From Bacilli bacterium (GTDB lineage Bacteria; Bacillota_I; Bacilli_A; RF39; UBA660): a stretch of DNA of 64,000 nucleotides. A model generated the notes under the pieces. It saw nothing but the letters and a program-made list of their open reading frames with translations, ran no database searches and was not told the origin of the DNA. The position numbers and the translations under genes are program-made. The DNA lies in assembly GCA_017460175.1 (NCBI GenBank), contig JAFUBO010000003.1:17150-81149 (forward strand), read 5' to 3'. This document shows, one piece after another, positions 43,817 through 59,576 of the stretch; position 1 is the first letter of the stretch, and each line of letters starts with the position of its first letter.

Positions 43817-45001
43817 ATGGGAAAAAAGAAGGTTAAATTAAAGAAAAAAATTAGGTTAATAGTAATAGTTTTACTAATTATTGTGTTAGGTATTTTTGCA
43901 CTAGATTATTTTGATGTATCTTCATATTTTACTAAGAAAGAAGAAGAAAAAAAGAAAAAAGTAGAAGTAAAAGTACCACAAGAATATGAAGCAAGTTTAT
44001 TTATGGTAGGAGATGCCTTGATTCACAGTTGTGTATATAATGATGCAAAGACTAGTGATGGTGGATATGATTTTAAACCTCAAATAGAGTTAATTAAACC
44101 AATAGCTTCTAAGTATGATTTAGCATATTATAATCAAGAAACTGTGTTGGGTGGTACAGAACTTGGACTTTCTAATTATCCGAGATTTAATTCACCATAT
44201 GAAGTAGGAGATGCATTTATAGATGCAGGGTTTAATTTAGTTTCTTTAGCTACTAACCATACTATGGATAAAGGAGAAGCTGGAGTTACTAATTCAGTTA
44301 ACTATTGGAAAAAACAAAAAAACGTTGTTACTTCAGGACAATGGTTAAGTGAAGATGAAAGAGAAGAAAGTGTAACTAAGATTCATGAAATAAATGGAAT
44401 TACATATGCATTTTTATCATATACTACGTGGACTAATGGATTAGAAACTCCATATGGAAAAAGTTATTTAAATAATGTTTATTCAGATGAAAAAGCAAAA
44501 GCTGATATTGAAAAAATTAAAGATAAAGTAGATATTATTATAGCTGCAATGCATTGGGGAACTGAATATTATTTAGGTGTAGATAGTGATCAAACACGAA
44601 TTGCTAATTTCTTAGCTAGTCAAGGGGTTCAATTAATTATTGGTGCTCATCCACATGTTGTAGAACCAGTTGAATATATTAATGATGGTAAGACATTTGT
44701 TATTTATTCATTAGGTAATATAATTTCAGATCAAGAAGGTAATGAAAGACTTACAGGACTTATGATGGGACTTGATATAAAGAAAAAGGTTGATGTAGAT
44801 GATTCAGTTACTATAAGTATTGAGAATCCAAGAGCTGAACTTTCTTATACTAAGTCTGGTTATTGTAAAAACTTTAAAGTATATCCTTATTCACAATTAA
44901 ATACAAGTATTCTTTATAATTATGAATCATTAAGAGATAAATACCAAGGAATTGTAAGTCAAAGATATCCTGACTTAAAATGGGGACTTGCAGGTGAATA
45001 A
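43817..45001 (+). CDS. CapA/PgsA-family metallophosphoesterase (poly-gamma-glutamate capsule synthesis protein-like), membrane-anchored
   Basis: N-terminal TM. 'AMHWGTEYY', 'IIGAHPHVVEP' are the CapA (PGA_cap) motifs. Inserted between rnr and smpB. Confidence 0.55.
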   Translation: MGKKKVKLKKKIRLIVIVLLIIVLGIFALDYFDVSSYFTKKEEEKKKKVEVKVPQEYEASLFMVGDALIHSCVYNDAKTSDGGYDFKPQIELIKPIASKYDLAYYNQETVLGGTELGLSNYPRFNSPYEVGDAFIDAGFNLVSLATNHTMDKGEAGVTNSVNYWKKQKNVVTSGQWLSEDEREESVTKIHEINGITYAFLSYTTWTNGLETPYGKSYLNNVYSDEKAKADIEKIKDKVDIIIAAMHWGTEYYLGVDSDQTRIANFLASQGVQLIIGAHPHVVEPVEYINDGKTFVIYSLGNIISDQEGNERLTGLMMGLDIKKKVDVDDSVTISIENPRAELSYTKSGYCKNFKVYPYSQLNTSILYNYESLRDKYQGIVSQRYPDLKWGLAGE

Positions 45002-45002
45002 T

Positions 45003-45440
45003 ATGGAAATATTAAACAAAAGAGCTAAATTCGATTATTTTATAGAAGAAGAATATGAAGCTGGAATAGAACTTACTGGTACAGAAGTTAAGTCAATAAG
45101 AGAAGGTAAATGCAATATTAAAGATTCTTATGGAATAGTAAGAAACGGGGAAGTATTTCTTCTTAATATGTATATCGCAGAATATAAAGAAGGTAATATA
45201 TTTAATCATGAAGAGTCTCGCAGTAGAAAATTATTATTACATAAAAAAGAAATAAAAAAAATAAATGATGCTATTACTTTGAATGGTTTAACTTTAGTTC
45301 CTTTAAAAGGTTATTTTAAAAATAATAAATTTAAAATACTATTAGGAATATGTCGTGGTAAAAAGAATTATGATAAGAGAGAGACTATAAAAGAAAGAGA
45401 TATTAATAGAGAAGTAAAAAAGAACTTAAAGAATTATTAA
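45003..45440 (+). CDS. smpB: SsrA-binding protein SmpB
   Basis: 'NKRAKFDYFIEEEYEAGIELTGTEVKSIR'. RBS 'aggtga' precedes ATG 45003. Confidence 0.85.
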   Translation: MEILNKRAKFDYFIEEEYEAGIELTGTEVKSIREGKCNIKDSYGIVRNGEVFLLNMYIAEYKEGNIFNHEESRSRKLLLHKKEIKKINDAITLNGLTLVPLKGYFKNNKFKILLGICRGKKNYDKRETIKERDINREVKKNLKNY

Positions 45441-45508: not shown

Positions 45509-45887
45509 GGGGCTGACTTGGTTTCGACGGGAATAATAGAGCATAGATGGCAAGTCGAATGTCCACGTCACGGGCACAAAAAAATAAATGCTAAAAGTAT
45601 TAAAAACGTTGTAGCTAATATGTTTGGTACTCGCCAAGCTGTAGCTTTTGCCTAATAATAATATAAAGGCCAACACTTCTTATAATCTTACCTAGGGATT
45701 ATTAAGAGGTTCATTTTATAGGTTATATCTATTTATTGTCTAGTAAATAGAAAGAATATTTAGACTGGTATATCTACTTGGTCGTTAATTACTTGGTAGG
45801 TATATAAGAACAATTAGTTAACTAAACTTGTAGAGGTTTATGTAGCTTTATTTTCGGACAGGAGTTCAATTCTCCTCAGCTCCACCA
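45509..45887 (+). ncRNA. ssrA: tmRNA (ssrA)
   Basis: 5' 'ggggctgacttggtttcgacggg'. 3' tRNA-like end 'ggacaggagttcaattctcctcagctccacca'. Internal tag ORF '...AKSIKNVVANMFGTRQAVAFA**' (gct aaa agt ... gcc taa taa). Directly downstream of smpB. Confidence 0.8.
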
Positions 45888-45900
45888 TAATGAAATTATT

Positions 45901-45925
45901 CGAACTAAGTTAGTTCGTTTTTTTA
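45901..45925 (+). terminator. intrinsic terminator after ssrA
   Basis: 'cgaactaa-g-ttagttcg' followed by T7. Confidence 0.6.
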
Positions 45926-45960: not shown

Positions 45961-46770
45961 ATGATTACTACAAAGAAAGATACCCAAATAGCTTTAGAAT
46001 TTTTAAATGGTAATCATTCTAAATACATTGGAGATAATTATAATTATATTTATAATTCTACTAATGAAAATTTAGATTCATATTATAAATATTTTCCTAT
46101 TAAAGATAAAAATATTTTAACTATTGCGAGTAGTGGAGATCATATATTAGAAGCAATATTAAATAGTTCTAAAGAAATAGTATGTTTTGATAAGAATATT
46201 TTTTCGTTATATATGTCAAAGTTAAAAATAGAATCTTTAAAAGTATTAAATTACGATGAATTTATTAATTTTTTTTATTCATCAAATTTTTTTAATAAAA
46301 AAGATTATTCTAAAATAAGAGAATGTTTAGATGAAAATATTAAATATTTTTGGGATAAATTGTATATAAAAGGTAATTTAGAAAATAATATAGGTAGACT
46401 ATTTTTAACTAATAGTTATGAATACTATGGAATTTATTGTGATGAAGATAAATTTGGTAAAATTAAAGAAAATAGTAATATTCCTATTACTTATAAACAT
46501 ACTAATTTTTTTGATTTACATAAAGTATTAAAATCGAGTGATAAGTTTTCATCAATTTTTTTATCTAATATACCAGATTGGTTAGATACTAAGAGTAGAA
46601 ATATTTATTACTATAATTACATTAAAAATGTTTTATCAAAATATTTAGATGATGATGGTATGATTGCGATTTATGCAGGAGTACAAGGTTCCAGACAATT
46701 AGAATTAGAAGAAAAAAGTAGTCAAATTATAGATGCAAATGAAAAAACAAAAGTATATGTTTATAGATAA
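45961..46770 (+). CDS. hypothetical protein, DUF3419/BtaA-like SAM-binding fold (putative)
   Basis: 269 aa. 'ILTIASSGDHILEAILNSSKEIVCFDKNIFSLYMSKLKIESLKVLNYDEFINFF' resembles the DUF3419 motif block (SaGdN.L..L..p..v.avD.N..Q.aLLeLK..a...L.y.ef...F). Confidence 0.3.
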   Translation: MITTKKDTQIALEFLNGNHSKYIGDNYNYIYNSTNENLDSYYKYFPIKDKNILTIASSGDHILEAILNSSKEIVCFDKNIFSLYMSKLKIESLKVLNYDEFINFFYSSNFFNKKDYSKIRECLDENIKYFWDKLYIKGNLENNIGRLFLTNSYEYYGIYCDEDKFGKIKENSNIPITYKHTNFFDLHKVLKSSDKFSSIFLSNIPDWLDTKSRNIYYYNYIKNVLSKYLDDDGMIAIYAGVQGSRQLELEEKSSQIIDANEKTKVYVYR

Positions 46771-46802: not shown

Positions 46803-46830
46803 TTGACAAAGAAAATAAATAAAGTATAAT
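46803..46830 (+). promoter_or_regulatory. consensus sigma-A promoter of TasA-like subunit gene
   Basis: TTGACA-16 nt-TATAAT, followed by very strong RBS 'aggaggagg' 8 nt before ATG 46855. Confidence 0.55.
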
Positions 46831-46854: not shown

Positions 46855-47451
46855 ATGAAAAACGAAAAACAAAAGAATATAGTGTTAGCTGTATTATTAG
46901 TAGCAGTTGTTACATTAACTATTGCTTATGCATTATTAAGTGCAACATTAACTATTAATGCACAAGCTACAGTTAAAGGAGCTAATTGGGATGTTCATTT
47001 CCAAGAAAAAAGTGATCAATCTGCAATCTGTGTAGCATCTTCAAAAACTGGAGCTGCAACAACTACTGCAGAAGTTAAAACACAACCAACTGTTAGTAAT
47101 ACAAGTTTTACTGGTTTAGCAGCTGATCTTAAATTACCTGGTGATAAAGTAGTTTGTACATGGCAAGTAACTAATGCAGGTTCAATCGATGCTAAATTAG
47201 CTACTTATACTGCACCAGCTTTAACTTACGCTGGAGATAGTGCTGACGTTACTAAAGTAACAGGTAAAATTAACACTACTTTAACTGTTGATGGTGCTAC
47301 ACCAGCAAATGGTGATGTATTACCAGCAACTACTGGTAACACTAAAGATGTAGTATTAACTATCGAATTTGATCCAAATGCTACAGAATTACCATCTCAA
47401 GATGTAACAGTAACAGTAGCAAGTGAAACATTTGTATACGAACAAAATTAA
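46855..47451 (+). CDS. TasA/camelysin (peptidase M73)-family secreted fibre-subunit-like protein with SipW-cognate-type signal peptide
   Basis: Signal peptide 'KNIVLAVLLVAVVTLTIAYALLSATLTINA'. Motifs 'SNTSFTGLAADL' (compare camelysin 'SNNTFAAGTLDL') and 'LKLPGDKVVCTWQVTNAGSIDAKL' (compare TasA 'LKPGDKLTKDFQFENNGSLAIKEV', CalY 'LKPGDSVKKEFLLQNSGSLTIKDV'). T/A/G/V-rich, translationally optimal codons. Confidence 0.5.
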   Translation: MKNEKQKNIVLAVLLVAVVTLTIAYALLSATLTINAQATVKGANWDVHFQEKSDQSAICVASSKTGAATTTAEVKTQPTVSNTSFTGLAADLKLPGDKVVCTWQVTNAGSIDAKLATYTAPALTYAGDSADVTKVTGKINTTLTVDGATPANGDVLPATTGNTKDVVLTIEFDPNATELPSQDVTVTVASETFVYEQN

Positions 47452-47470: not shown

Positions 47471-47500
47471 TCCAGGATGCTTAGCATACTGGATTTTCTT
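47471..47500 (+). terminator. imperfect hairpin plus T-rich tract between subunit gene and peptidase gene (possible attenuator / partial terminator)
   Basis: 'ccaggatgcttagcatactgg' near-palindrome followed by 'attttctt'. Confidence 0.3.
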
Positions 47501-47518
47501 GGTAAAGGGAGTGAAAAA

Positions 47519-48646
47519 GTGAAAACTAGTCATAAAAAGGCACTAGCTATACTTATGTTTATAGCTTTAGTTAGTATTGTTAACTTTTTCTTTCCCTTTA
47601 TACTTGATAGTAATAGGCATTTAATATTACTTGGGTTAGTCCTTGTTATATTATATTTATTACTAGGTATTGATATTAAGGGAAAGTCTAATAATAGACT
47701 TATAATAAGAGATATTCTTATTTATATAACTTTTTATTACCTATTAATATATTTATTAGGATTATTAACAGGATTTGTAAGAACAATTTATAGTTATACA
47801 ATATCAAATCTAGTAATAAATATAATTCCAAGTATATTGACAATATTTGGAGTTGAGTTAATTCGTAATCAATTAATTAATAAAACTAATAAGAAAAAAA
47901 TTATAGTAGTATTATCTTGTATAGTATTTATATTATTTGAAATAAGTATTAATTTTCAATATTATAATCTTACTATAAAAGATGAAATATATTTATTTAT
48001 AGGATTACTTGTAGCTTCAAGTATATCTAAAAATATACTAATGACAGTAATAGCTATGAAAACAGATTATTTACCTGCGGTAGTATATAGGCTATTAATT
48101 GAAACATTAGATTTTGTAGTATTAATTCAACCTGATTTGGGTCCATATTTAAATTCAGTAGTAGCAATAATGTTACCAATATTAACTGCGATAATGCTTA
48201 TAAATATGGGCAAGAAAGTTAAAGATACACCTGAGAAAGTAAAGAAAGGTAGTAAATTTTATATAGTTTTAGTTATTATTTTATCTATATTAGTTTTACT
48301 TAATTCAGGATTGTTAAAATTTCAAACTTTAGTAATAGGTTCACAATCAATGCTTCCTATGATAGATAAAGGTGATGTGGTTTTGATTGAAAGATTAAAT
48401 AAAGAAGAGAAAGATAAAGTAAAATTAGGAGAAATTCTAGTATATAGATATGATAATAAGATAATTTGTCATAGGGTAGTTAAAGTATCAAAACGAGATA
48501 ATGGTACTTTCTATAAGACAAAAGGTGATAATAATGACCAAGATGATAAAATTGTTCTTTCTAGGAAAGAAGTTATGGGGAAGGTAATATATAGAATTAA
48601 ATATATTGGTCTACCAAGTGTATGGTTAAATGAATTATTTAATTAG
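47519..48646 (+). CDS. polytopic membrane domain fused to C-terminal SipW-type signal peptidase I domain
   Basis: Likely GTG start at 47519 after RBS 'agggag' (the ORF track's ATG 47477 lacks an RBS). About 280 aa with 8 or more TM segments, then 'LVIGSQSMLPMIDKGDVVLIERL' (Ser box), 'ICHRVVKV' (His), 'KTKGDNNDQDD' box. This is the same motif set as the SipW at 747-1352. Confidence 0.55.
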   Translation: MKTSHKKALAILMFIALVSIVNFFFPFILDSNRHLILLGLVLVILYLLLGIDIKGKSNNRLIIRDILIYITFYYLLIYLLGLLTGFVRTIYSYTISNLVINIIPSILTIFGVELIRNQLINKTNKKKIIVVLSCIVFILFEISINFQYYNLTIKDEIYLFIGLLVASSISKNILMTVIAMKTDYLPAVVYRLLIETLDFVVLIQPDLGPYLNSVVAIMLPILTAIMLINMGKKVKDTPEKVKKGSKFYIVLVIILSILVLLNSGLLKFQTLVIGSQSMLPMIDKGDVVLIERLNKEEKDKVKLGEILVYRYDNKIICHRVVKVSKRDNGTFYKTKGDNNDQDDKIVLSRKEVMGKVIYRIKYIGLPSVWLNELFN

Positions 48647-48658
48647 AGGTGATATAAA

Positions 48659-49663
48659 ATGAAATTGAAAAAGAAAGAGTTAATATTATTAATAGCAACT
48701 ATAGTATTTACAGTAGCAGGATTGGTGTTTTACTATGAATCTAAAAATATAGTAACTACATCGTTAATACCATATGATGAACAAGGAACAGCTAACTATA
48801 AAGTTCATTTAAGTGATAATACATATTATAATAAAGATTACTTAGATGAAGGAATGCAATATATATCTAGTATTATTGATTATGTTGATTTGGATTTTAG
48901 ATATATTGCTAATTACCAAGGTATAAAGAATTATAAGGTAGATAAAAATATAGTTGCTAATATAAAAATTACTGATTTAGATGATAATAATAAAGTAATT
49001 TATACAAAGACAGAGACATTAAAAGAAGAACATGCTGATTTAGATAAATTATCAATTAATGATTCTATAAAGATTGATTATGTTAAGTATAATGACTTAG
49101 TAAATGAAATAAAAAGTAAATATGCAATAAGTGCTAAATCTACTTTAAGTGTTTCATATAATATTATTTATTCTTCTGAAGAAGAAGGTTTAAGTACAGC
49201 TAAAAAGATGGTTGTAGATATACCTTTATCTGAGCAAATGATTAATATTACTAAGGAAAATATTGCTAGAAATAGTGATGTTTATGTTGGCAAATCTACA
49301 AATTCACCAATAAATGGTATTATGTCATTACTTATGATATTAATGTTTATATTTGCACTTGCTAGTTTAATATTCTTTATTATGAGAGTAAAAGATAGAA
49401 TTAGTAAAGAAAGTAAATATGATAGATTTATTAATAAAGTATTAAGAGAGTATGATTCTTATATTACTGAAACTAAAGAAGATAATTATATTACTGGAAA
49501 ATCTGTAATAGAAATAGGTAGTTTTAAGGAATTATTAGATGTAAGAAACAATATTGATAAGACTATTGTTTATACAAAAATTGATGATAATACAAGTAAA
49601 TTTCAAATTATTGATGAAGAAGTTTATGAGTATGTAGCTAAAAGAGAAGAAATGGATAAATAA
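48659..49663 (+). CDS. bitopic membrane protein (N-in signal anchor, about 190-aa extracytoplasmic domain, second TM, cytoplasmic tail)
   Basis: TM1 'LILLIATIVFTVAGLVFYY', TM2 'IMSLLMILMFIFALASLIFFIM'. Translationally coupled to the peptidase fusion. No known motif. Possible TapA-like accessory or anchor. Confidence 0.3.
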   Translation: MKLKKKELILLIATIVFTVAGLVFYYESKNIVTTSLIPYDEQGTANYKVHLSDNTYYNKDYLDEGMQYISSIIDYVDLDFRYIANYQGIKNYKVDKNIVANIKITDLDDNNKVIYTKTETLKEEHADLDKLSINDSIKIDYVKYNDLVNEIKSKYAISAKSTLSVSYNIIYSSEEEGLSTAKKMVVDIPLSEQMINITKENIARNSDVYVGKSTNSPINGIMSLLMILMFIFALASLIFFIMRVKDRISKESKYDRFINKVLREYDSYITETKEDNYITGKSVIEIGSFKELLDVRNNIDKTIVYTKIDDNTSKFQIIDEEVYEYVAKREEMDK

Positions 49664-49856: not shown

Positions 49857-52800
49857 ATGCGTAAAAAAATATTGTTATTACTTAGCATGTTTTTAATTAT
49901 GATTACAACATATGCATATTCAGCACTATCAACTTCTTTGGCAATAACTTCGGAGGTAAATATTAGACCATTAGCTGATATAAGAGTTAATGGAATAGCA
50001 TTAGATAGTACTCATGATTCTACTGTTAAATATGAAAGTACTTATTCAAGAAGTATAATATCTAGTGGTTTTGTATTACCAAATGCAGGATCAAGCATTA
50101 GTTATAGAGTTCATATAGATAATACAGGTGATGTGGATTACTGTATTTATGGTATTTCTACAAATACTACTAGTACAGGTTTAAATGTAGATACAGGAAG
50201 TTATAACTTACAAGATATAATACCTGCTAAAAGTTCTTTAGATTTAATAATAACTTATACTACATCTAATCCAAGTAGTGAACCAATAAATGTAATGAAT
50301 CAATTTGATTTTAGAAAAGTATTCCATGTAAGTTATAACACTGGAACTTCTCAAACAATACCTGAACAAATTAAATACGAAAGAGTGGATTTAACTTTAA
50401 CAAATACAAAACCTACTAAGCCTGGTAATACATTTAGTAGATGGAATACTAAGAGTGATGGAACAGGAGTTAATTATAATAGCGGAGCTACTTATACAGT
50501 GGATGAAGATGTAATATTATATGCACAATATACATTACAAACTTATAATATCACTTATGTGCTTGATGGTGGAACTAATAGTTCTAATAACCCAAGTACT
50601 TATACAACAAATTCAAATGATATTATATTAGATGATGCTAGTAAGACAGGATATGATTTTCAAGGATGGACTGGTAATGGTACTACGACACCAACAAAAA
50701 ATTTAGTATTACCAACTGGTTCTACAGGAGATAAGACATTTACTGCACACTTTAGTGATGTTACAGATCCAACAGTTACTGTAAAAGATCAAACAGGTAC
50801 TATAGATTATTTAACAACTGCTTATAATGTAGATGCAGCATGGGATGCTACTAGTGCAACTCCTACTGTATATATTAATGCAGAAGATACAGGTAGTGGT
50901 GTTAAGAAAATAGAATATGTATATAGTAATAGCACTACAGTACCTACAACTGGATGGACTGAAACAACTAATGGAGCTTTAAGTCAAGTAAAAGAACGTG
51001 GTAGTTATTATTTACATGTAAGAGTAACAGATAATGAAGATAATGTAACTACAGTAACAACTAAACCAATAACAGTAAGATTTAGAGTAGCTTATTATGA
51101 CGATTATAGTAAGAGTACAACTATATCAGAAAATCAATATTATACAGGAACAGCACTAACTTCTAGAACACCAACAGCAGTTACTGGTTATACATTTGAT
51201 GGTTGGTATAGTGATACAGCATTAACTCATAAAGTTGTTAATGCCAACACAAGTTATACACCAACTGCTTCAACAAAATTATATGGTAAATGGACATCTA
51301 CAAATTACACAATAAGTTATGCAATGAATAATGGACAAAATAATGAAAATAATCCAACAAATTATAATAGTGAAAGTGAAGCAATAACATTACAAGCACC
51401 AACTAAGACATTGATATTTAAAGGAAATTATAATGCAACAAGTGGAGCAAATGCTTCAAGCGGTAGTGGTGTAGCTATTGGATCTAATACAACAGCAAAT
51501 CAAACATTTACAGGTTGGACAGGAAGCAATGGAAATACTCCACAAACTACTGTAACAATACCAGCAGGTTCAACTGGAGATAAAGAATATACAGCACATT
51601 GGAGTGCAGTTGCACCTAATAAGTTACCAAAGGTAGAGAGAACAGGATATAGATGTGGATGGAATACAAGTAATAGTGGAACAACAATAGAGTATGCAAG
51701 TGAAGCTACAAATTATCCAACAAGTGCAATAAGTGAAGGTCAATCATCAACAGTTAATTTATATGCGGTATGTATACCAAACACATATAATATTTCATAT
51801 ACAATGAATGGTGGAACTAATCCAAGTACAAAACCAACAACTGCAACATATGATAGTGATGTTAATATAAGTAATCCAACAAAGATATTTACAGTTAATT
51901 TAGATGCAAATAATCAAGAGGCTGATATTAAAATTCAAGGTGGATATGATGTAATAAGTGTAAGTCAATCACAAACATTTGCAGGATGGAGTAGTACTAC
52001 AATAGGAAGTAATGCTAAGAGTGGTACAAGTACTAAACCAAGTGGAGCTTGGGATGGTAGTGCTACTACTAATAGTCATTTTATGAATTTAGTAGAATCT
52101 GGAACAGTAACAATGCTAGCAAACTGGACACCAGTAGATATTACTTTACCAAATGTTACTAAGACAGGATATTCATGTAAATTTAATACAAGTTCTAATG
52201 GAACAGGTACAGATTATGCAAGTGGAGCAACATATTCACCAAGTGCTACAGCAAATAGTGATACATTATATGCAATTTGTAGTCCAAATTCTTATACAGT
52301 AACTGCAAATGCAAATGGTGGAGATATACCTTCTACATCAGGTTGGACAGGAACAGGTGGAAGTTCTACTAAGTCAATAGTATTTGATACAAATTACGGG
52401 ACACTTCCAACTCCGACTAAAACTAGTTATACATTTGATGGTTGGTATAGAAATATAGTAAAAGCAGTAGATTTTAAAGATGCTACAGGTATTAATTCCG
52501 ATACAGGTGAACCAATTCATGCATCAAATTATTTTGCAACACCTAACTTAGTACCTATAAAATCTGGAATTACATTATATTCTAATTTAGAAATATGTGG
52601 AATATATTCATATGATTCAAATGGTGACTTTATAAAGAGAGAATCTAATTATTCTACAACTCATTCAATTTCAGCTAATGCTGCTTATATAAGAATTGAA
52701 GTTAAAAAGCAAGAAGGAGATATGAATTATTACTTAAATAATTTAGTAATAAGTGAATATCAAAATGCAGCTGATATAACTGATATAAGTAGTCAATTAA

Positions 52801-55800
52801 CAAGTTCAACAGTTTTAAAAATAGCTGTTGATCATAGTATTTTTGCTAAGTGGAGTATTAATAATATATCAACACCAGCAATAAGTGGTGGAACTACTAA
52901 AATATATGGTTCAAGTGATACAACTTTAACTTGTTCAGAAAATACAAGCTATGGACAAGGTATAACTAAATATTATTCATTTGGTTACGCTACAACTAAT
53001 GATGGTACACCAAGTAATTGGACTGAACCATCTACTTCAAATACATTTACTGTTGCAGAAAATGAATATGTAGGACAAAGATGGTATTCATGTAGAGTAT
53101 ATGCAACTGATGGTGTACAAACTACTTCAATAGTAGCAAGTTCACCATCAGCAGATACAGAACTAACAATAAATAATGCAAAAATTGTTTATAATCCTAA
53201 TGATTGTGGAACAATAAGTGGAACAAATCCTGCTTATGTTAAGAAAGGATCAACTGGAGTATACACTGGTATAAGAAATACTACAGCAGGAACAATAGCA
53301 ACTGCAACTCAAAGCGGATATACATTTACAGGATGGTATGATGGAACAACAAAAGTAATTAATGCAGATGGAACGATAGTTCCAAGTGCAGGTAATTGGA
53401 CAGATTCTTCTAGAAATTGGTTAATTACTGAAGATAAAACATTAGCTGCTCATTGCAGCGGTAATTCATTTACTATTGATTATGCAATGAACAATGGTCA
53501 AAATAATGCAAGTAATCCAACAAATTATAATATTACTGATACACCTATAACTTTAGGTCAACCAACAAAGACATTAACATTTATTGGACATACTAATTCA
53601 ACTAGTGGTGCTTATGGTACTGGAGTAACTATTGGATCTAATACAACAGCAAATCAAACATTTACAGGTTGGACAGGAAGTAATGGAAACACTCCACAAA
53701 CTAGTGTTACAATTACTGAGGAAACAGCTGGTAATAAGAATTATACAGCTCACTGGAGTGCAGTAGCTCCTGATACATTACCAACAGTAACAAGAAAGGG
53801 TTATACTTGCGGATGGAGTACAAGTAATAGTGGAACTACTATTGAATATGCAAGTGGTGCTACAAATTATCCAACGTCTTTGATTACAGAAGATATGAGT
53901 GCTACAGTTAACTTATATGCTGTATGTACTCCAAATATCTATTCAATAACATTAGATAATCAAGGTGCTGATACACCAGGAACTACAAAAGTTTATTATC
54001 AATATAATCAAACAAAAACTATTGATGGTACTAAGTGTTATTATTATTTAGATAGAGAATTAACTCAGTGTTTAAGAGGTGGATATTATATTGATAAACC
54101 TGCAAAAACAGGAAATACATTTGGAGGATATTATTCAAAAGTAAATGGTGCAGGAACAAGATATGTTACAACTTCTGCTGGATTTACTAATAGTATTTAT
54201 CAAAAAGCTCCTATTGATATAGATAGTAGTTATACAGATACAGATAATATTCCTTTATATGCTAAATGGACTCCTTATGCGTATAATATTTCTTATACGT
54301 TGAATGGTGGAAATGATCCAAGTCCAAAACCAACAAAAGGAAATTATGGTAGTGATGTAGTTATTGGTAATCCAACAAAGACATTTACAATTAACATTAA
54401 TGCAAATAGTCAAGGTGCAACAATAAGTTCAAATACTGTTACAAAGTCAATAACATTTGCAGGATGGAATAGTACAACTATTTCTGATACAGCAAAAACT
54501 GGTACAAGTGCTGATCCAACTACAACATGGGATGGTAGTGCTACTACTAATACATACTTTAAAAATTTAAGAAATACAAATGGAGCAACTGCTACAATGA
54601 TTGCTAATTGGGCACCTACGGATATAACATTACCAACTATTGAAAAAACTGGTTATACATGTGGATTTGCTACAAGTAGTAGTGGATCAATAGCATATGA
54701 AAGTGGTGGTACATATACATCTACAAGTGCATCAAGTGTAACTTTATATGCAAAATGTACTAAGGAAAATTATACAATTACTTATAGTATGAATAATGGT
54801 ACAAATAATAGTAATCCAACTAGTTATAATGTTGAAAGTAGTGCTATTACATTAGCAGCACCAACTAAGACATTAACATTTGTAGGACATTCTAATTCAA
54901 CAAGTGGAGCTGAAGGAACTGCTGTATCTATTGGATCTAATACAACACAGGATCAAACATTTGCAGGTTGGACAGGAAGTAATGGAAATACTCCACAAAC
55001 TGCTGTAACAATAGCGACAGGTTCAACTGGAAATAAAGAATATACTGCTCACTGGACAGGAGTAGCGGCAACACTTCCTACTGTAACTAAAAAAGGATAT
55101 ACATGTGGATGGAGTACAAGTAGTAGTGGAACTACTATCGAATATGAAAGCGGTGGAACATTCCCAGTAAGTGCTATTACTGAGGATATGTCTACTACAG
55201 TAAATTTATATGCTGTATGTACAAGAAATAAGATAAAATTAACATTAGATCATGATGGTGGTACATCATCAACACAATACATGTGGTATTATTATGGTAT
55301 TAATACATTCTATTCAGATGAGACATGTACAAATATAATAACTTCTGTACCAGTACCAATTAAAACAGGTTATTCATTCTCTAGGTATGTAGCTGATGGT
55401 ACTAGTGGTGGATCTTCAGGAGAACGTTATATTTATAGTGATGGTACTTTTGCATCCGATTTATCTAGTGATATATGGAAGGATGCGACATTAACTGCAG
55501 AATGGAGTGCTAGATCTTATAGTATTTCATACACAATGAATGGTGGAGTTAATCCAGATCCTAGACCAACTAGTGCTACATATGATAATGCTGTAGAAAT
55601 TGGTACAACAGCACAAACAACAAAAACATTTACAGTTAATATTAATGCAAATAGCCAAGGAGCAACATTAAGTGATACTAGTTCAAGTGCAGCATTAACA
55701 TTTACAGGATGGAATAGTTCTACACTTGGTTCTACTGCATTAACTAGTAGTGATGGAACTACATATACAGCTTGGGATGGTACTTTAACGACAAATAAAT

Positions 55801-57626
55801 ACTTTAAGAATTTAAGAGAATCTGGAACAGCAACATTGATTGCTAACTGGACAGGTTCTGTACCATTACCAACTATTGAAAAAACTGGATATGTATGTAA
55901 ATTTAATACAAATTCACATGGTACTGGAACTGATTATGAAAGTGGAGGAATTTATACTCCAACTAATGGAACAGCTACAAGTACTACATTGTATGCTATT
56001 TGTAGTAAAGATGTTTATACAATTAGTTATGCAATGAATAATGGACAAAATAATCCTAATAATCCAACAACTTATAGTGTTGATGATAGTGATATTACAT
56101 TACAAGCACCAACTAAAACACTAATATTTAAAGGAAACTATAATGCAACAAGTGGGGCCAATGGTACATCTACTTATATAAACAGTATAGGTACTGATAC
56201 AACAGCAGATCAAACATTTGCTGGATGGACAGGAAGTAATGGAAATACTCCACAAACTAGTGTTACAATACTAACAGGTTCAACTGGAAATAAAGAATAT
56301 ACAGCACACTGGACAGGAGTAGCTGGAACAGTACCAACAATAACTCCAAAGACTAATTATATTTGTGGATGGAGTACAAGTAATAGTGGAACTACAATTG
56401 AGATAGCAAGTGGTGGAAGTTATGATGTTAGTAGAATAACTGAAGACATGAGTTCAACAGTTAACTTATATGCCGTATGTAGAAAAAAAGCATATAGTAT
56501 TAAATTTAATGCTAACGGTGGAACTGGAACTATGACAAATCAATCAATGACATTTGGAACTGTTGCTACATTAAAACAAAATGCATTCACAAGGTCAGGT
56601 TATGAATTTGTAGGATGGACTCGTAATAGTGATGGTACTGGAGTTATTTACACTGATTTTAATGGTAGAGCAGCAGCTTATTATGATCAAGAACAAATAA
56701 TGAGGGATTTGACTGAAACAGATGGTGATATAGTTAACTTATATGCACAGTGGAGAAAAACTAGTGGAGAAATTATATATAATGCTAATGGTGGAGCAGG
56801 AACAATGGCAAATCAAACAATCCCATTAGATGGATCATCTATTAATTTAACAGGAAATGCTTATTCTACTTCTCCAGGATATATATTTAATAAATGGAAC
56901 ACTAAAAGTGATGGAACAGGTTACAGTTATTCTAACGGTGCTTCTATGACAATTATGCCTAATATGTTTATAAATACTTCTAATCCATCATTACCAACTT
57001 CTACAATTTCTTATGCTTTAGCTGGTCAATGGGGTAAAACTTCAGATGAGCTTACTCCGTCATTAATATCAGTAAATAATAGCGGATTGCCTGTTAATAA
57101 AGCTTTTGTAATACCTCAAAATACAACTTCTAAACCATATTATTTATACTTAAATTATATGCTTACAGAAGTTGAGGAATATTATATTATAAGTATATAT
57201 GCGAAAGGTTCTGGTAATTTAATAATTAAAGCTGAAGCAGAGGGAAGTAGTACTAATGGTAAAACAAGTAGTTTTACATTGACAAATGATTGGCAAAGGT
57301 ATGAAATGAAGATTTATCCTACAAGGAGTATTAGAACGTCGGATAATGATGATGATGTATATGTTAATATCCATAAACAATTTAATGTTTACTTTGGTAC
57401 AGAATCTGGAAATGGTGAAGTTCAAATAGCAGGAGCTAAAATGGAAAAAGGATCTACTCATGCAACTGAATATATTGATTCTAATGCACAAATAAACTTA
57501 TATGCTCAATGGAGTAGAGTAATGGCTGAAAATATTTATTATGAACCTAAGTATGCTCCAAGTACTTGCCATGATGTTCAATGTACATTAGATTATATAG
57601 ATAGTATACTTAATGGTAATAGTTAA
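49857..57626 (+). CDS. giant (2589 aa) secreted surface protein: TasA-like N-terminal domain, at least 20 Listeria-Bacteroides (Flg_new) repeats, C-terminal beta-sandwich (CBM-like) domain, no LPXTG
   Basis: Signal/donor-like N-terminus 'ILLLLSMFLIMITTYAYSALSTSLAITS'. 'VLPNAGSSISYRVHIDNTGDVDY' is a TasA-like motif. Recurrent 'Y.I.Y..NGG....(GY.F.GW).....LYA.W' repeat units (for example 'YSIKFNANGGTGTMTNQ...SGYEFVGWTRNSDGTG...VNLYAQW'). Confidence 0.7.
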   Translation: MRKKILLLLSMFLIMITTYAYSALSTSLAITSEVNIRPLADIRVNGIALDSTHDSTVKYESTYSRSIISSGFVLPNAGSSISYRVHIDNTGDVDYCIYGISTNTTSTGLNVDTGSYNLQDIIPAKSSLDLIITYTTSNPSSEPINVMNQFDFRKVFHVSYNTGTSQTIPEQIKYERVDLTLTNTKPTKPGNTFSRWNTKSDGTGVNYNSGATYTVDEDVILYAQYTLQTYNITYVLDGGTNSSNNPSTYTTNSNDIILDDASKTGYDFQGWTGNGTTTPTKNLVLPTGSTGDKTFTAHFSDVTDPTVTVKDQTGTIDYLTTAYNVDAAWDATSATPTVYINAEDTGSGVKKIEYVYSNSTTVPTTGWTETTNGALSQVKERGSYYLHVRVTDNEDNVTTVTTKPITVRFRVAYYDDYSKSTTISENQYYTGTALTSRTPTAVTGYTFDGWYSDTALTHKVVNANTSYTPTASTKLYGKWTSTNYTISYAMNNGQNNENNPTNYNSESEAITLQAPTKTLIFKGNYNATSGANASSGSGVAIGSNTTANQTFTGWTGSNGNTPQTTVTIPAGSTGDKEYTAHWSAVAPNKLPKVERTGYRCGWNTSNSGTTIEYASEATNYPTSAISEGQSSTVNLYAVCIPNTYNISYTMNGGTNPSTKPTTATYDSDVNISNPTKIFTVNLDANNQEADIKIQGGYDVISVSQSQTFAGWSSTTIGSNAKSGTSTKPSGAWDGSATTNSHFMNLVESGTVTMLANWTPVDITLPNVTKTGYSCKFNTSSNGTGTDYASGATYSPSATANSDTLYAICSPNSYTVTANANGGDIPSTSGWTGTGGSSTKSIVFDTNYGTLPTPTKTSYTFDGWYRNIVKAVDFKDATGINSDTGEPIHASNYFATPNLVPIKSGITLYSNLEICGIYSYDSNGDFIKRESNYSTTHSISANAAYIRIEVKKQEGDMNYYLNNLVISEYQNAADITDISSQLTSSTVLKIAVDHSIFAKWSINNISTPAISGGTTKIYGSSDTTLTCSENTSYGQGITKYYSFGYATTNDGTPSNWTEPSTSNTFTVAENEYVGQRWYSCRVYATDGVQTTSIVASSPSADTELTINNAKIVYNPNDCGTISGTNPAYVKKGSTGVYTGIRNTTAGTIATATQSGYTFTGWYDGTTKVINADGTIVPSAGNWTDSSRNWLITEDKTLAAHCSGNSFTIDYAMNNGQNNASNPTNYNITDTPITLGQPTKTLTFIGHTNSTSGAYGTGVTIGSNTTANQTFTGWTGSNGNTPQTSVTITEETAGNKNYTAHWSAVAPDTLPTVTRKGYTCGWSTSNSGTTIEYASGATNYPTSLITEDMSATVNLYAVCTPNIYSITLDNQGADTPGTTKVYYQYNQTKTIDGTKCYYYLDRELTQCLRGGYYIDKPAKTGNTFGGYYSKVNGAGTRYVTTSAGFTNSIYQKAPIDIDSSYTDTDNIPLYAKWTPYAYNISYTLNGGNDPSPKPTKGNYGSDVVIGNPTKTFTININANSQGATISSNTVTKSITFAGWNSTTISDTAKTGTSADPTTTWDGSATTNTYFKNLRNTNGATATMIANWAPTDITLPTIEKTGYTCGFATSSSGSIAYESGGTYTSTSASSVTLYAKCTKENYTITYSMNNGTNNSNPTSYNVESSAITLAAPTKTLTFVGHSNSTSGAEGTAVSIGSNTTQDQTFAGWTGSNGNTPQTAVTIATGSTGNKEYTAHWTGVAATLPTVTKKGYTCGWSTSSSGTTIEYESGGTFPVSAITEDMSTTVNLYAVCTRNKIKLTLDHDGGTSSTQYMWYYYGINTFYSDETCTNIITSVPVPIKTGYSFSRYVADGTSGGSSGERYIYSDGTFASDLSSDIWKDATLTAEWSARSYSISYTMNGGVNPDPRPTSATYDNAVEIGTTAQTTKTFTVNINANSQGATLSDTSSSAALTFTGWNSSTLGSTALTSSDGTTYTAWDGTLTTNKYFKNLRESGTATLIANWTGSVPLPTIEKTGYVCKFNTNSHGTGTDYESGGIYTPTNGTATSTTLYAICSKDVYTISYAMNNGQNNPNNPTTYSVDDSDITLQAPTKTLIFKGNYNATSGANGTSTYINSIGTDTTADQTFAGWTGSNGNTPQTSVTILTGSTGNKEYTAHWTGVAGTVPTITPKTNYICGWSTSNSGTTIEIASGGSYDVSRITEDMSSTVNLYAVCRKKAYSIKFNANGGTGTMTNQSMTFGTVATLKQNAFTRSGYEFVGWTRNSDGTGVIYTDFNGRAAAYYDQEQIMRDLTETDGDIVNLYAQWRKTSGEIIYNANGGAGTMANQTIPLDGSSINLTGNAYSTSPGYIFNKWNTKSDGTGYSYSNGASMTIMPNMFINTSNPSLPTSTISYALAGQWGKTSDELTPSLISVNNSGLPVNKAFVIPQNTTSKPYYLYLNYMLTEVEEYYIISIYAKGSGNLIIKAEAEGSSTNGKTSSFTLTNDWQRYEMKIYPTRSIRTSDNDDDVYVNIHKQFNVYFGTESGNGEVQIAGAKMEKGSTHATEYIDSNAQINLYAQWSRVMAENIYYEPKYAPSTCHDVQCTLDYIDSILNGNS
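51305..51780 (+). repeat. intragenic about 480-nt repeat, family A copy 1 (other copies at about 53470-53940, 54770-55220, 56015-56480)
   Basis: Long identical runs shared between copies, for example 'caaacatttacaggttggacaggaag.aatggaaa.actccacaaact' and 'agttatgcaatgaataatggacaaaataat'. Confidence 0.6.
51785..52280 (+). repeat. intragenic about 500-nt repeat, family B copy 1 (other copies at about 54285-54780 and 55515-56010)
   Basis: Encodes 'Y.ISYTMNGG.NP...PT...Y...V.IGNPTK.FT.N..AN.Q.A......FAGW.S.T......T.....W.G..TTN..F.NL......T...ANW.P.DITLP...KTGY.C.F.T...G'. Shared DNA strings between copies. Confidence 0.55.
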
Positions 57627-57645
57627 TCTATATGAATAAGATATA

Positions 57646-57674
57646 AAAACAGCATAATATATGCTGTTTTTATT
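57646..57674 (+). terminator. intrinsic terminator of giant gene
   Basis: 'aaaacagcat-aatat-atgctgtttt' followed by 'tatt'. Confidence 0.55.
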
Positions 57675-57749: not shown

Positions 57750-58385
57750 TTATTTTATTTTCATTGCATATAAACGACCTGTTGTTCCAATTGCACTTCC
57801 ACTGTTTTGATAAGCACATAGATAAATTGTTCCACTAGTGTCTGCTATATCATATGGATAACTAGTAAATCCAATACGTGTATTTTGTCCGTTTACTGCA
57901 GGAACAATAGTATGAGCTGCTGCACTAAATTCAGTATCTGGACAAGAACTAGAATATGCTAGATATACTCTTCTATGACCTGTTGCGTTTGATGTAAAAT
58001 TCGCATTACCATTAATAATCCATCTACCTGGAGTTAATGTAATTTGAGCAATTCTAGTTTTAGTATCATTTGCTACTGAAACTTCATTTGGTTCTGCTGC
58101 TATACGTTCTCCTAGACTATTATATGCATTTACATAATTAATTATATCTTGTTGAAATTTAGTAGATACTTCAAGAGCATCTAACGCTGATTCTACTTCT
58201 TCAAATGGCAATTGAGAATTAGTATTATCATAACTAACCTTGTCACTATTAAAGTATATTGTAGCAGCGTATCCTATAGAAATGGAACCTATTATCATAC
58301 CTACAATGGAAAATAATATAGGTTGTATACTGTTACGTATAATTTCTTTTAATTTTATTTTCTTTTCATTATTTATTATTTTCAT
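57750..58385 (-). CDS. small secreted protein, paralog 1 of TasA-motif family (N-terminal signal anchor, C-terminal beta-rich domain ending GRLYAMKIK)
   Basis: 211 aa. 'IGSISIGYAATIYFNSDKVSYDNTNSQL' N-terminus, 'LTPGRWIINGNANFTSNATGHRRV' motif, 'YLCAYQNSG...GRLYAMKIK' C-terminus. Paralogous to the next two ORFs. Confidence 0.45.
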   Translation of the reverse strand: MKIINNEKKIKLKEIIRNSIQPILFSIVGMIIGSISIGYAATIYFNSDKVSYDNTNSQLPFEEVESALDALEVSTKFQQDIINYVNAYNSLGERIAAEPNEVSVANDTKTRIAQITLTPGRWIINGNANFTSNATGHRRVYLAYSSSCPDTEFSAAAHTIVPAVNGQNTRIGFTSYPYDIADTSGTIYLCAYQNSGSAIGTTGRLYAMKIK

Positions 58386-58393
58386 ATTATCAC

Positions 58394-59035
58394 CTATTTT
58401 ACATTAATTGCATATAAACGACCAAGAGTCGATAAAGCATTTGGACTAGTTTGATATCCACATAAATAATAAGTACTTGAAGCAGTAGAAACATAAGGTG
58501 CATTAAAAGAAAGATATGTATAGGTACCATTTACTGCGTTTTCTATAACAAACCACGAGTTACCAAGAATACCATCACAGTCACTATTTCTTGATATCCA
58601 TATTTCTCTATAACCTGTTGCGTTTGAATTGTATCTTGCAGCACCATTAATCATCCATTTACCTGCAGGTAGTGTAACACTGGCAAGTTGAGTAGCTGTA
58701 CCAGAAGGTACTGAAACAGCTGCTGGTTCAATAGATCTTAGTTGACCTTTAGGTGTATAAGCAGTTTCTAATGCAGCAGCATTATTCGTAATATCAACAT
58801 CATCACATAATTCATCTATTGCACTTTGTACATCAGTTGATGATAATGAACTATTAGTATTGTCATAGCCTACATTAATAGAATCATAATCATAAAGTGT
58901 AGCATATCCAACTGTAGTTGATCCTATTACTGCTCCTAAAATTCCTAATATCATTAGTGTTAAATTTCTTATTATAAAATTTTTTGATTTTTTTCTTTTC
59001 CATCTATTAATTTTATAATTTTTAAACATATTCAT
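58394..59035 (-). CDS. small secreted protein, paralog 2 (ends GRLYAINVK)
   Basis: 213 aa. 'VGYATLYDYDSINVGYDNTNSSLSSTDVQSAIDEL', 'LPAGKWMINGAARYNSNATGYREI', 'YLCGYQTSPN...GRLYAINVK'. Confidence 0.45.
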   Translation of the reverse strand: MNMFKNYKINRWKRKKSKNFIIRNLTLMILGILGAVIGSTTVGYATLYDYDSINVGYDNTNSSLSSTDVQSAIDELCDDVDITNNAAALETAYTPKGQLRSIEPAAVSVPSGTATQLASVTLPAGKWMINGAARYNSNATGYREIWISRNSDCDGILGNSWFVIENAVNGTYTYLSFNAPYVSTASSTYYLCGYQTSPNALSTLGRLYAINVK

Positions 59036-59054: not shown

Positions 59055-59576
59055 TTATTTTATTCTTATAGCATACATACGACCACCAGTTTCTAAAGTT
59101 GTTCCACTGTTTTGAAAACCACATAAATAATATGTTGTGGTTGTTACAGGTGTTTGGAAACCAGAAAATGAAATATTTGTATCTGTTAATGCAGCATTAC
59201 TATTTTTATAGAAAGCTGCTCCGTATGGTGAAGAACAAGTTGAATTACGCGATAGGAATATTTGTCTATAACCTGTTTGGTTGAATTCAAAATTTGCTGC
59301 TCCTTCAATAAACCATGTTCCACTTGGAACTTCAATACTCGCAAGTTTAGTAGATGTATTAGAAGATAATGAAATTGGATCTGCTAAATTACGTACCATA
59401 TCTCCAAAGTCATTATCATAATGATCTTTATAAGTATTATAAATAACAACATCTTCTCCATGATTCTCAATGAAACAATTACTAGATGAAGCACTATAAC
59501 CTAATCTTAATGCTCCGCCTATTATTGTGCATATTAATACAACAATTATATATTTTATATTTTTCTTAAATTTCAT
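59055..59576 (-). CDS. small secreted protein, paralog 3 (ends GRMYAIRIK)
   Basis: 173 aa. 'VPSGTWFIEGAANFEFNQTGYRQI', 'YYLCGFQNSG...GRMYAIRIK'. Shorter N-terminal region. Confidence 0.45.
   Translation of the reverse strand: MKFKKNIKYIIVVLICTIIGGALRLGYSASSSNCFIENHGEDVVIYNTYKDHYDNDFGDMVRNLADPISLSSNTSTKLASIEVPSGTWFIEGAANFEFNQTGYRQIFLSRNSTCSSPYGAAFYKNSNAALTDTNISFSGFQTPVTTTTYYLCGFQNSGTTLETGGRMYAIRIK

Follow-up and report, generated by a model that had tools for sequence, protein, structure and literature searches.

Prokaryotic type I signal peptidases are usually viewed as stand-alone, promiscuous enzymes. In Staphylococcus aureus, SpbR, a degenerate CAAX homolog in which motif 2 reads FIYLD, binds the transmembrane (TM) helix and the ectodomain of the type I signal peptidase (SPase I) SpsB in a 1:1 complex and modulates cleavage, and this complex inhibits cleavage in vivo as well as in vitro (PMC12260438). 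SpdC of the same organism, acting via TM3 and its loop to TM4, serves as a scaffold for the single-pass hydrolase SagB, and the complex has nine TMs (10.1101/2020.05.21.109470). Among fiber systems, a dedicated SPase, TafD, is genetically required for processing of the haloarchaeal fiber subunit and is paired with TafG, a DUF5305 protein (PMC11821415). A January 2026 preprint describes the SPase I at AbpX loci as 'structurally distinct, possessing ten TM helices', and treats DUF5305 as a putative SPase accessory subunit with an extracellular beta-sandwich (10.64898/2026.01.04.697558). AbpX belongs to the TasA superfamily. TasA is a poor substrate for LepB-type peptidases owing to its bulky P2′ residue (PMC10269814). 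The gene analyzed here, at 47519-48646 (+) of a 64,000-nt stretch of Bacilli bacterium contig JAFUBO010000003.1 (the window), belongs to a large family (the N-domain profile described below matches 1,582 of the 50%-identity clusters, with hosts ranging from gut Bacilli to archaeal hyperthermophiles) that stands in contrast to the stand-alone view, with the peptidase joined to an apparent CAAX-fold pseudoenzyme. We consider it probable that this gene encodes the dedicated single-chain signal peptidase holoenzyme of an AbpX-type fiber operon, in which a pseudoprotease of the CPBP (CAAX-protease) fold acts as scaffold or gate.

The window is strongly AT-rich (GC 24-33% around the fusion locus) and has the look of chromosomal DNA from an uncultured member of the Bacilli. 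An identical protein appears in public records as 'MAG: signal peptidase I [Bacilli bacterium]', MAG denoting a metagenome-assembled genome. The open reading frame (ORF) runs unbroken from 47477 to 48646 (+) and would encode 389 aa. The GTG at 47519 is the start in public gene calls and in more than 100 homologs, giving a product of 375 aa with the N-terminus MK(T)S.KK (residue numbers follow this product), and a ribosome-binding site, AGGGAG, was read at 47506-47511 (+), 7 nt 5′ of the GTG. Upstream of the ATG at 47477, no ribosome-binding site was found at a proper spacing. The start site is therefore the one preferred by an initial annotation made from the letters alone, and the central claim of that annotation, that a SipW-type peptidase and a polytopic membrane domain form one protein, is confirmed by the single ORF and by a match to TIGR02228. 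The possibility of two genes, or of an internal start, was ruled out, as both domains lie in one continuous ORF in 63/63 cases across the loci described below and Met232 has no Shine-Dalgarno sequence. The protein begins with an N-domain (aa 1-228; 47519-48202, +) of eight TM helices with a predicted degenerate CPBP/CAAX-protease (Rce1/SpdC-like) fold, followed by a Lys-rich cytoplasmic linker with seven Lys or Arg residues and a low predicted local distance difference test (pLDDT) score (aa 229-247; 48203-48259, +). The next segment, TM9 (aa 248-266; 48260-48316, +), is by hydropathy and the positive-inside rule the N-in/C-out anchor of the peptidase itself, and aligns to the N-terminal TM of the canonical SipW encoded at 747-1352. 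The remainder (aa 267-375 plus stop; 48317-48646, +) is an S26 (Sec11/SipW-like) catalytic domain of the endoplasmic reticulum (ER)/archaeal type, predicted to be extracytoplasmic.

The assignment of this catalytic domain is the firmest part of the analysis. TIGR02228 (ER/archaeal-type signal peptidase I; MEROPS S26B) matches aa 261-383 of the 389-aa ORF with 82.2 bits against a cutoff of 51.85, and human SEC11C (7p2q_A) and SEC11A (7p2p_A) were matched at 2.8e-12 and 2e-11, respectively. In the aligned boxes, SQS277M of the fusion stands opposite SGSM of SEC11, CH318R opposite VHR, and TKGD337NN..D343 opposite TKGDNN..D, so that the Ser/His dyad already noted from the motifs pairs with that of SEC11A/C. 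Chain 9rjb, a mutant, has Ala in place of the second Ser of the first box, and this Ser is thereby identified as the nucleophile; the general base is, by alignment, His and not Lys. Ser277 (48347-48349), His318 (48470-48472), Asp337 (48527-48529), and Asp343 (48545-48547) show no variation among 234 homologs (109 close, 125 distant). Judged by these alignments, the C-terminal domain is an ER/archaeal-type Ser-His signal peptidase, placed by prediction on the outer face of the membrane. The SipW equivalog model NF046067 gives 54.2 bits against a cutoff of 190, so the protein is not SipW proper; the two-TM architecture of SipW is also absent, and identity to the window's own SipW-type enzyme (747-1352) is 34%.

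Topology was derived from Kyte-Doolittle hydropathy and the positive-inside rule, a simple calculation rather than a dedicated predictor such as DeepTMHMM. Nine TM segments were found (11-29, 35-53, 64-84, 96-115, 128-146, 158-178, 185-203, 210-228, and 248-266), that is, the eight-helix N-domain plus the anchor helix of the peptidase, in keeping with the eight or more helices first counted ahead of the catalytic domain. Loops rich in Lys and Arg (54-60, 116-127, and 229-247) alternate with loops carrying few or none, which argues for an N-terminus inside and a peptidase domain outside, the orientation on which the initial annotation depended. The C-terminus of the catalytic domain is an amphipathic helix rather than a TM, again as first noted, whereas the canonical SipW at 747-1352 has a C-terminal TM; within the family, only two archaeal members (10 helices) carry one, while bacterial members have 9 helices and an amphipathic end. 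An AlphaFold2 model of the fusion protein (pLDDT 87.7, predicted template modeling score (pTM) 0.76) places the helices as in the hydropathy prediction, and a separate model of aa 1-245, made with another alignment, scored a pLDDT of 87.3 and a pTM of 0.83. The outer loops are short, about 10 residues each. The best-conserved outer elements are the TM3-TM4 loop (G81, G85, F86, and Y91) and the TM7-TM8 loop (P202, P205, G208, and Y210), each modeled with a short beta-strand (86-88 and 203-205).

When first described, the N-domain was said to have no recognisable family signature. By sequence this stands: the window protein has no Pfam or NCBIfam match in this region, a Pfam scan of 125 family members returned neither PF02517 (CPBP) nor any other TM family, and an N-domain profile gave 0 matches at E <= 10 against PDB sequences. 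By structure it does not, as the models point to an eight-TM fold of the Rce1-type CPBP, or type II CAAX-protease, class. The CPBP family reportedly counts APH-1 among its established relatives. An exosortase/archaeosortase-like N-domain was ruled out, because neither a Cys nor a His is conserved and no fold match of that kind was obtained. For comparison by profile, seven PF02517 proteins were collected, seeded from a canonical CPBP gene in one of the loci (L028, 5532-6605), which lies 2.2 kb upstream of the fused peptidase there and encodes intact EEIIFR, FGLLH, and HCIQN motifs. Aligned to these with hhalign, the N-domain gave a probability of 64.8% and an E value of 6.2e-5 over 176 columns, with E113 on the second Glu and R116 on the Arg of motif 1 (EExxxR), and F137 on the Phe and E141 on the His of motif 2 (FxxxH).

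What the family retains of these motifs is conserved but not catalytic in the canonical sense. Where CPBP proteases read EExxxR, FxxxH, and HxxxN/D, the fusion reads x-E113-x-x-R116, F137xxx(D/E)141, and R191xxxE195 on TM7. Across 125 N-domain representatives, E113 (47855-47857) and R116 (47864-47866) are 99% conserved, position 141 is D or E in 87%, N172 is kept in 86%, Y190 in 90%, R191 in 73%, and E/D195 in 71%; P202, P205, and P220 are conserved as well. In contrast, position 112, which corresponds to the first, catalytic Glu, is variable, and no His of the domain is conserved across the 125 representatives. With its catalytic motifs lost, the N-domain is not to be classed as an active CPBP protease, and, lacking both catalytic His residues and the first catalytic Glu, it most likely cuts nothing. 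The alternative is that the N-domain has kept intramembrane protease activity, with E113, D/E141, R191, and E195 making up a non-canonical site. It would then perform a second cut, for example signal-peptide clearance, by which a signal peptidase and a signal-peptide peptidase would be united in one chain, or else trim the subunit. The near-invariance of E113 and R116 and the acidic or polar residues kept at all three CPBP motif positions speak for such an activity, as does the 1:1 stoichiometry with the first protease that a fusion ensures, and some bacterial CPBP proteins are active, as stated for MroQ (cited in PMC12260438) and for a myxosortase (PMC11980579). However, the Glu/His/His/Asn site has lost both His residues to other amino acids, EExxxR is not conserved at its first Glu, and no member of the family matches PF02517 (125 scanned). 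In addition, SpdC, LnsB, and SpbR of S. aureus are experimentally non-catalytic, and their catalytic motifs have degenerated as in the N-domain, including FxxxD in SpbR (PMC12260438). We thus think a second protease activity quite unlikely.

The fusion is general among the N-domain matches inspected. A HMMER scan of 1.84 billion representatives (50%-identity clusters) with the N-domain profile matched 1,582 representatives (E <= 1e-3), of which 1,181 reached E <= 1e-10. The best 150 of the 1,582 are all fused proteins or fragments: 125 are 361-397 aa long, 22 are shorter and have the appearance of truncated proteins, some breaking off within a TM or coming from contigs of just 1-3 kb, and one of 812 aa looks chimeric. 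The latter (P0137) has a truncated peptidase domain followed by an unrelated C-terminal region of about 500 aa, and is probably a frameshift or a chimeric call. A second profile search gave 54 matches, again all fused or fragments, one of them from the cultured Acidaminobacter sp. JC074, and no unfused N-domain homolog was found in it or among the best 150 of the first. At the genomic level, 62 loci (61 GTDB species genomes and the window) contain 63 ORFs that match the N-domain, and 63/63 also hold the peptidase domain. The database search for this architecture that had been suggested thus places the peptidase domain in every complete match inspected. Members occur in Bacillota, Chloroflexota, Actinomycetota, the candidate phyla radiation (CPR), and Thermoproteota, with hosts that include gut Bacilli or 'Tenericutes' MAGs, Clostridia, Syntrophomonas, Desulfovirgula, Anaerolineae, Chloroflexia, Acidimicrobiales, a Candidatus Nomurabacteria member, and two Desulfurococcales archaea, one of which is Zestosphaera tikiterensis (NZ3, locus L057).

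The neighborhood of the fusion gene is also conserved. When the ORFs lying up to 7 kb from the fusion gene were clustered for all 62 loci, exactly two other families proved to be conserved. The first, family A, consists of secreted proteins of about 170-230 aa and is present at 59/62 loci, often in several copies, with a larger paralog (A′, 330-1155 aa) usually downstream. The second is DUF5305-like and is found at 56/62 loci, in each directly 3′ of the fusion gene. The typical cassette therefore has the order A, fusion, DUF5305, large A′, which is kept in 56-59/62 loci across phyla. At unfused SipW-type loci, DUF5305 was seen in 0/19, and its association is specific to the fused form of the peptidase. 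Three complete subunit-fusion-DUF5305 cassettes occur in one MAG (CAZVUP01; loci L007 and L010), two of them in tandem in L010, so the system can be multi-copy.

In the window, the family A position is taken by a 198-aa precursor (46855-47451, +) with a predicted signal peptide at aa 1-26 (46855-46932). Against the PDB, a profile of family A (66 sequences) matched the fibril subunit AbpX from Pyrodictium abyssi (9sj2_C; 4.3e-11), 9rhp (1.5e-7), and B. subtilis TasA (0.011). As a single sequence, the window subunit gave nothing significant against the PDB, while it scored 128 bits against the family profile built without it; by this profile evidence it is an AbpX-like (TasA-superfamily) fiber subunit. 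The fusion gene is followed after 12 nt by a DUF5305 protein of 334 aa (48659-49663, +; PF17231, 1.9e-15) and then by a giant surface protein of 2589 aa (49857-57626, +) with a signal peptide, an AbpX-like domain at aa 1-158 (49857-50330), and Flg_new (Listeria-Bacteroides) repeats (1.2e-32). Its aa 2-158 match the family A profile with an i-Evalue of 5.8e-11, and in most loci a large A-domain protein holds the same position, making it a candidate tip or adhesin subunit. The giant gene has a GC content of 31-33%, compared with about 24% in the three genes upstream, and contains long internal repeats of Flg_new-type modules. Together, the cluster holds the components of an AbpX-type fiber locus: a subunit whose signal peptide precedes an amphipathic donor strand at the N-terminus, a polytopic SPase I, DUF5305, and a candidate tip protein.

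The candidate substrates share a cleavage motif. Signal peptides of family A have a median length of 27 aa with an uncharged stretch of 19 aa, and end in G/A(-3) Y/F(-2) A(-1), followed by x [LFWY] S x x L x I x G, with the Ala at -1 conserved in at least 90%. The alignment with AbpX begins at mature residue 2 (WSETL), which places the cleavage site after this nearly invariant Ala, and from this we infer cleavage as AYA26|LLSATLTINAQ in the subunit and AYS|ALSTSLAITSE in the giant protein. As the N-terminal segment is the donor strand in AbpX and TasA (10.64898/2026.01.04.697558), cleavage would yield a polymerization-competent end. A C-terminal sorting tag in the style of myxosortase was ruled out, as the C-termini of the subunits are soluble, carry a conserved Y-x-Q, and lack a TM. 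The suggestion that the fusion serves as a dedicated processing platform for the adjacent TasA-like proteins is supported by the AbpX profile match, the conservation of the cassette, and the presence of the motif in both proteins.

These observations suggest the following mechanism. The Sec11/SipW-type domain would cleave the Sec-exported precursors of the 198-aa subunit and the 2589-aa tip or adhesin; the cut after G/A-Y/F-A would free the amphipathic donor strand for insertion into a neighbor, such that cleavage would license polymerization and release the subunits. By analogy with SpdC and SpbR, the N-domain would clamp the anchor helix TM9, while the conserved TM3-TM4 and TM7-TM8 outer loops may fix the position of the catalytic domain above the membrane and the N-domain may control the access of membrane-embedded signal peptides to the active site. 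DUF5305 would be a further subunit of the peptidase. A different sign of control is conceivable, in which the N-domain is chiefly an SpbR-like brake on a potentially promiscuous ER-type peptidase, protecting other membrane or secreted proteins from being cut and released only by cognate precursors or by a signal relayed through DUF5305. The inhibition of SpsB by SpbR in vivo and in vitro (PMC12260438) speaks for this, and the genome encodes a separate canonical SipW-type enzyme (747-1352), from which it follows that the substrates of two enzymes need to be partitioned. Still, a permanent covalent inhibitor would be an odd design, strict co-inheritance with substrates of a common cleavage motif favors positive substrate selection, and this explanation overlaps the gating mechanism, from which it differs in sign only; as a description of the main role of the N-domain, we hold it to be unlikely.

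The outer loops bear on another explanation, in which the N-domain is an anchor or assembly platform for the fiber that is independent of cleavage, holding the filament base or the tip protein, with the peptidase merely tethered nearby. General ORF and family scans found no sortase/LPXTG, SLH, or TapA-like anchor encoded in the operon, and the two conserved loops on the extracytoplasmic side (G81-Y91 and P202-Y210) could be binding sites for a protein partner. Yet these loops are very short, DUF5305 with its extracellular beta-sandwich (10.64898/2026.01.04.697558) is the more plausible platform, and the known CPBP scaffolds bind membrane-anchored enzymes rather than fibers (PMC12260438; 10.1101/2020.05.21.109470). 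An anchor of this type is, in our estimate, highly improbable.

Several observations weigh against the holoenzyme with a CPBP scaffold or gate as we propose it. The linker between TM8 and TM9 has a low pLDDT, and the packing of TM9 and the peptidase against the CPBP bundle is putative. The fold itself is barely seen by Foldseek, with the Rce1 match at rank 39 and an E value of 0.74, and the hhalign probability is only 65%, with an alignment that ends before motif 3, so that R191xxxE195 is equated with motif 3 (HxxxN, TM7) from helix order alone. The strong conservation of E113 and R116 (99%), D/E141, N172, R191, and E195 exceeds the apparent need of a passive scaffold and leaves room for ligand binding or unconventional catalysis. 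SpbR inhibits its peptidase, and the analogy is silent on whether a fused domain activates, gates, or restrains. The window subunit has Leu at mature position 2 and Ala at position 4 rather than the aromatic and acidic residues of Ca-mediated donor-strand complementation; in family A, position 2 is aromatic in 40/66 and position 4 acidic in 25/66, and Ca coordination is not universal among AbpX-type subunits (10.64898/2026.01.04.697558).

A wider idea can be built on the same arrangement. It is hypothesized, tentatively and as one possibility, that the fusion is a 'Rosetta stone', identifying CAAX-fold pseudoenzymes as general receptor or gate subunits of type I signal peptidases. The vestigial, cytoplasm-facing cavity (E113, R116, D/E141, R191, and E195) would bind the basic n-region and the h-region of the signal peptide and present the G-Y-A|x-Φ-S site to the peptidase. 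If this were true, the fusion together with DUF5305 would correspond, in prokaryotes, to the multi-subunit signal peptidase complex of eukaryotes, with cleavage coupled directly to donor-strand polymerization of a biofilm fiber. More immediately, the fusion offers a tractable single-chain model of how CPBP scaffolds position membrane-anchored enzymes, the locus marks an uncharacterized TasA/AbpX-like fiber and adhesin system in uncultured gut Bacilli of very low GC, and, as to annotation, neither Pfam nor NCBIfam has a model of the N-domain, the proteins being labeled only 'signal peptidase I'.

The surroundings of the cassette are consistent with a transcription unit of four genes. A sigma-70-type promoter-like site, TTGACA-16-TATAAT (46803-46830, +), lies directly upstream; it is a consensus match (12/12) only, and the sole perfect one in the region. 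A terminator-like hairpin with a 14-bp stem (57643-57673, +), just past the giant gene, is the first 3′ of 46855 in the scanned stretches, and such hairpins near the cassette were found only just downstream of the giant gene, the interior of that gene (50000-57400) lying outside the scan. From these signals, the subunit, fusion, DUF5305, and giant genes are read as a single operon in the window. Directly upstream is a DUF3419 gene (45961-46770), and in locus L010 four ORFs of the same cluster lie upstream of the cassette there (upstream of position 2884); the cluster occurs in only 2/62 loci, and the linkage may thus be coincidence. Further upstream are smpB and then the transfer-messenger RNA (tmRNA) gene (44988-45440 and 45509-45887, respectively), with the tag peptide AKSIKNVVANMFGTRQAVAFA, and a hairpin terminator at 45901-45917. 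On the minus strand, three tandem paralogs (57750-58385, 58394-59035, and 59055-59576; 211, 213, and 173 aa) converge on the operon terminator, each with an N-terminal TM that has GYA or GYS at its end; all share the C-terminus GR(L/M)YA(M/I)x(I/V)K. They have no match in Pfam, NCBIfam, or PHROGs, and could be further substrates of a SipW-type enzyme. At the left edge of the window, the unfused SPase locus encodes the canonical two-TM SipW-type peptidase (747-1352; TIGR02228, 100 bits), preceded by a 197-aa protein (71-664) with an N-terminal TM and no family match. Arrays of proteins of about 205 aa lie upstream of a similar 230-aa peptidase in loci L063, L069, and L070.

Compared with the described systems, each half of the fusion resembles a known family. 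The peptidase shares with B. subtilis SipW and with archaeal and eukaryotic Sec11 the Ser-His-Asp set, the SxSM, HR, and GDN..D boxes, an N-in anchor with the catalytic domain outside, and genes that adjoin those of TasA-superfamily fiber subunits with a bulky hydrophobic residue at P2′ of the cleavage site. Unlike these enzymes, it has eight additional N-terminal TMs and a constant DUF5305 partner, and the bacterial fusion members have no C-terminal TM. In register with Rce1 and the CPBP family (PF02517), the N-domain still has the motif 1 Arg and second Glu as well as the motif 2 Phe. Conservation is lacking at the catalytic first Glu, at the motif 2 His, and at both motif 3 residues (His and Asn), and PF02517 matches 0/125 members.

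Among the fiber systems, the TafD/TafG pair of haloarchaeal Tat-fimbriae likewise has a dedicated SPase I for a TasA-superfamily subunit together with a DUF5305 partner. However, TafD has four TMs and a second outer domain but no CPBP bundle, and its substrates follow the Tat (twin-arginine translocation) pathway. The ten-TM SPase I of AbpX loci is of the same family as the fusion, the example organism Zestosphaera tikiterensis NZ3 being the source of locus L057, and its neighbors are likewise AbpX-like subunits, a tip protein, and DUF5305 (10.64898/2026.01.04.697558). In contrast to the archaeal enzyme, the window protein and the other bacterial members have nine TMs. That a polytopic SPase stands at AbpX loci is therefore already known (10.64898/2026.01.04.697558). 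The terms CPBP, CAAX, Rce1, and 'intramembrane' are absent from the text of that preprint, and titles and abstracts of literature on CPBP plus signal peptidase I give no sign of a fusion of the two. The fold of the extra helices, the pattern of degenerate motifs, and the parallel to SpbR-SpsB and SpdC-SagB may be unreported.

The two staphylococcal complexes provide this parallel. In SpdC(LyrA)-SagB (PDB 6U0O), 8 + 1 TM helices are combined as in the fusion, and the TM3-TM4 loop used by SpdC is among the best-conserved outer elements of the N-domain; on the other hand, SagB is a glucosaminidase and not a peptidase, the partners are unfused, and identity is 10-11%. In SpbR-SpsB, a protein of degenerate CPBP fold and a type I signal peptidase with a single TM pair at 1:1, and FxxxD/E replaces FxxxH as in the fusion. 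There, contact is made through the TM helix and an outer loop of the peptidase with the effect of substrate control, and by analogy the same may apply within the fusion. The two differ in that the fusion is one chain rather than two proteins, that SpsB is a Ser-Lys (P-type) enzyme while the fusion is Ser-His (ER-type), and that SpbR, unlike the fusion N-domain, is recognized as CAAX-like by a hidden Markov model (HMM) and inhibits its peptidase. The fusion lends independent evolutionary support to the recently discovered SpbR-SpsB type of regulation.

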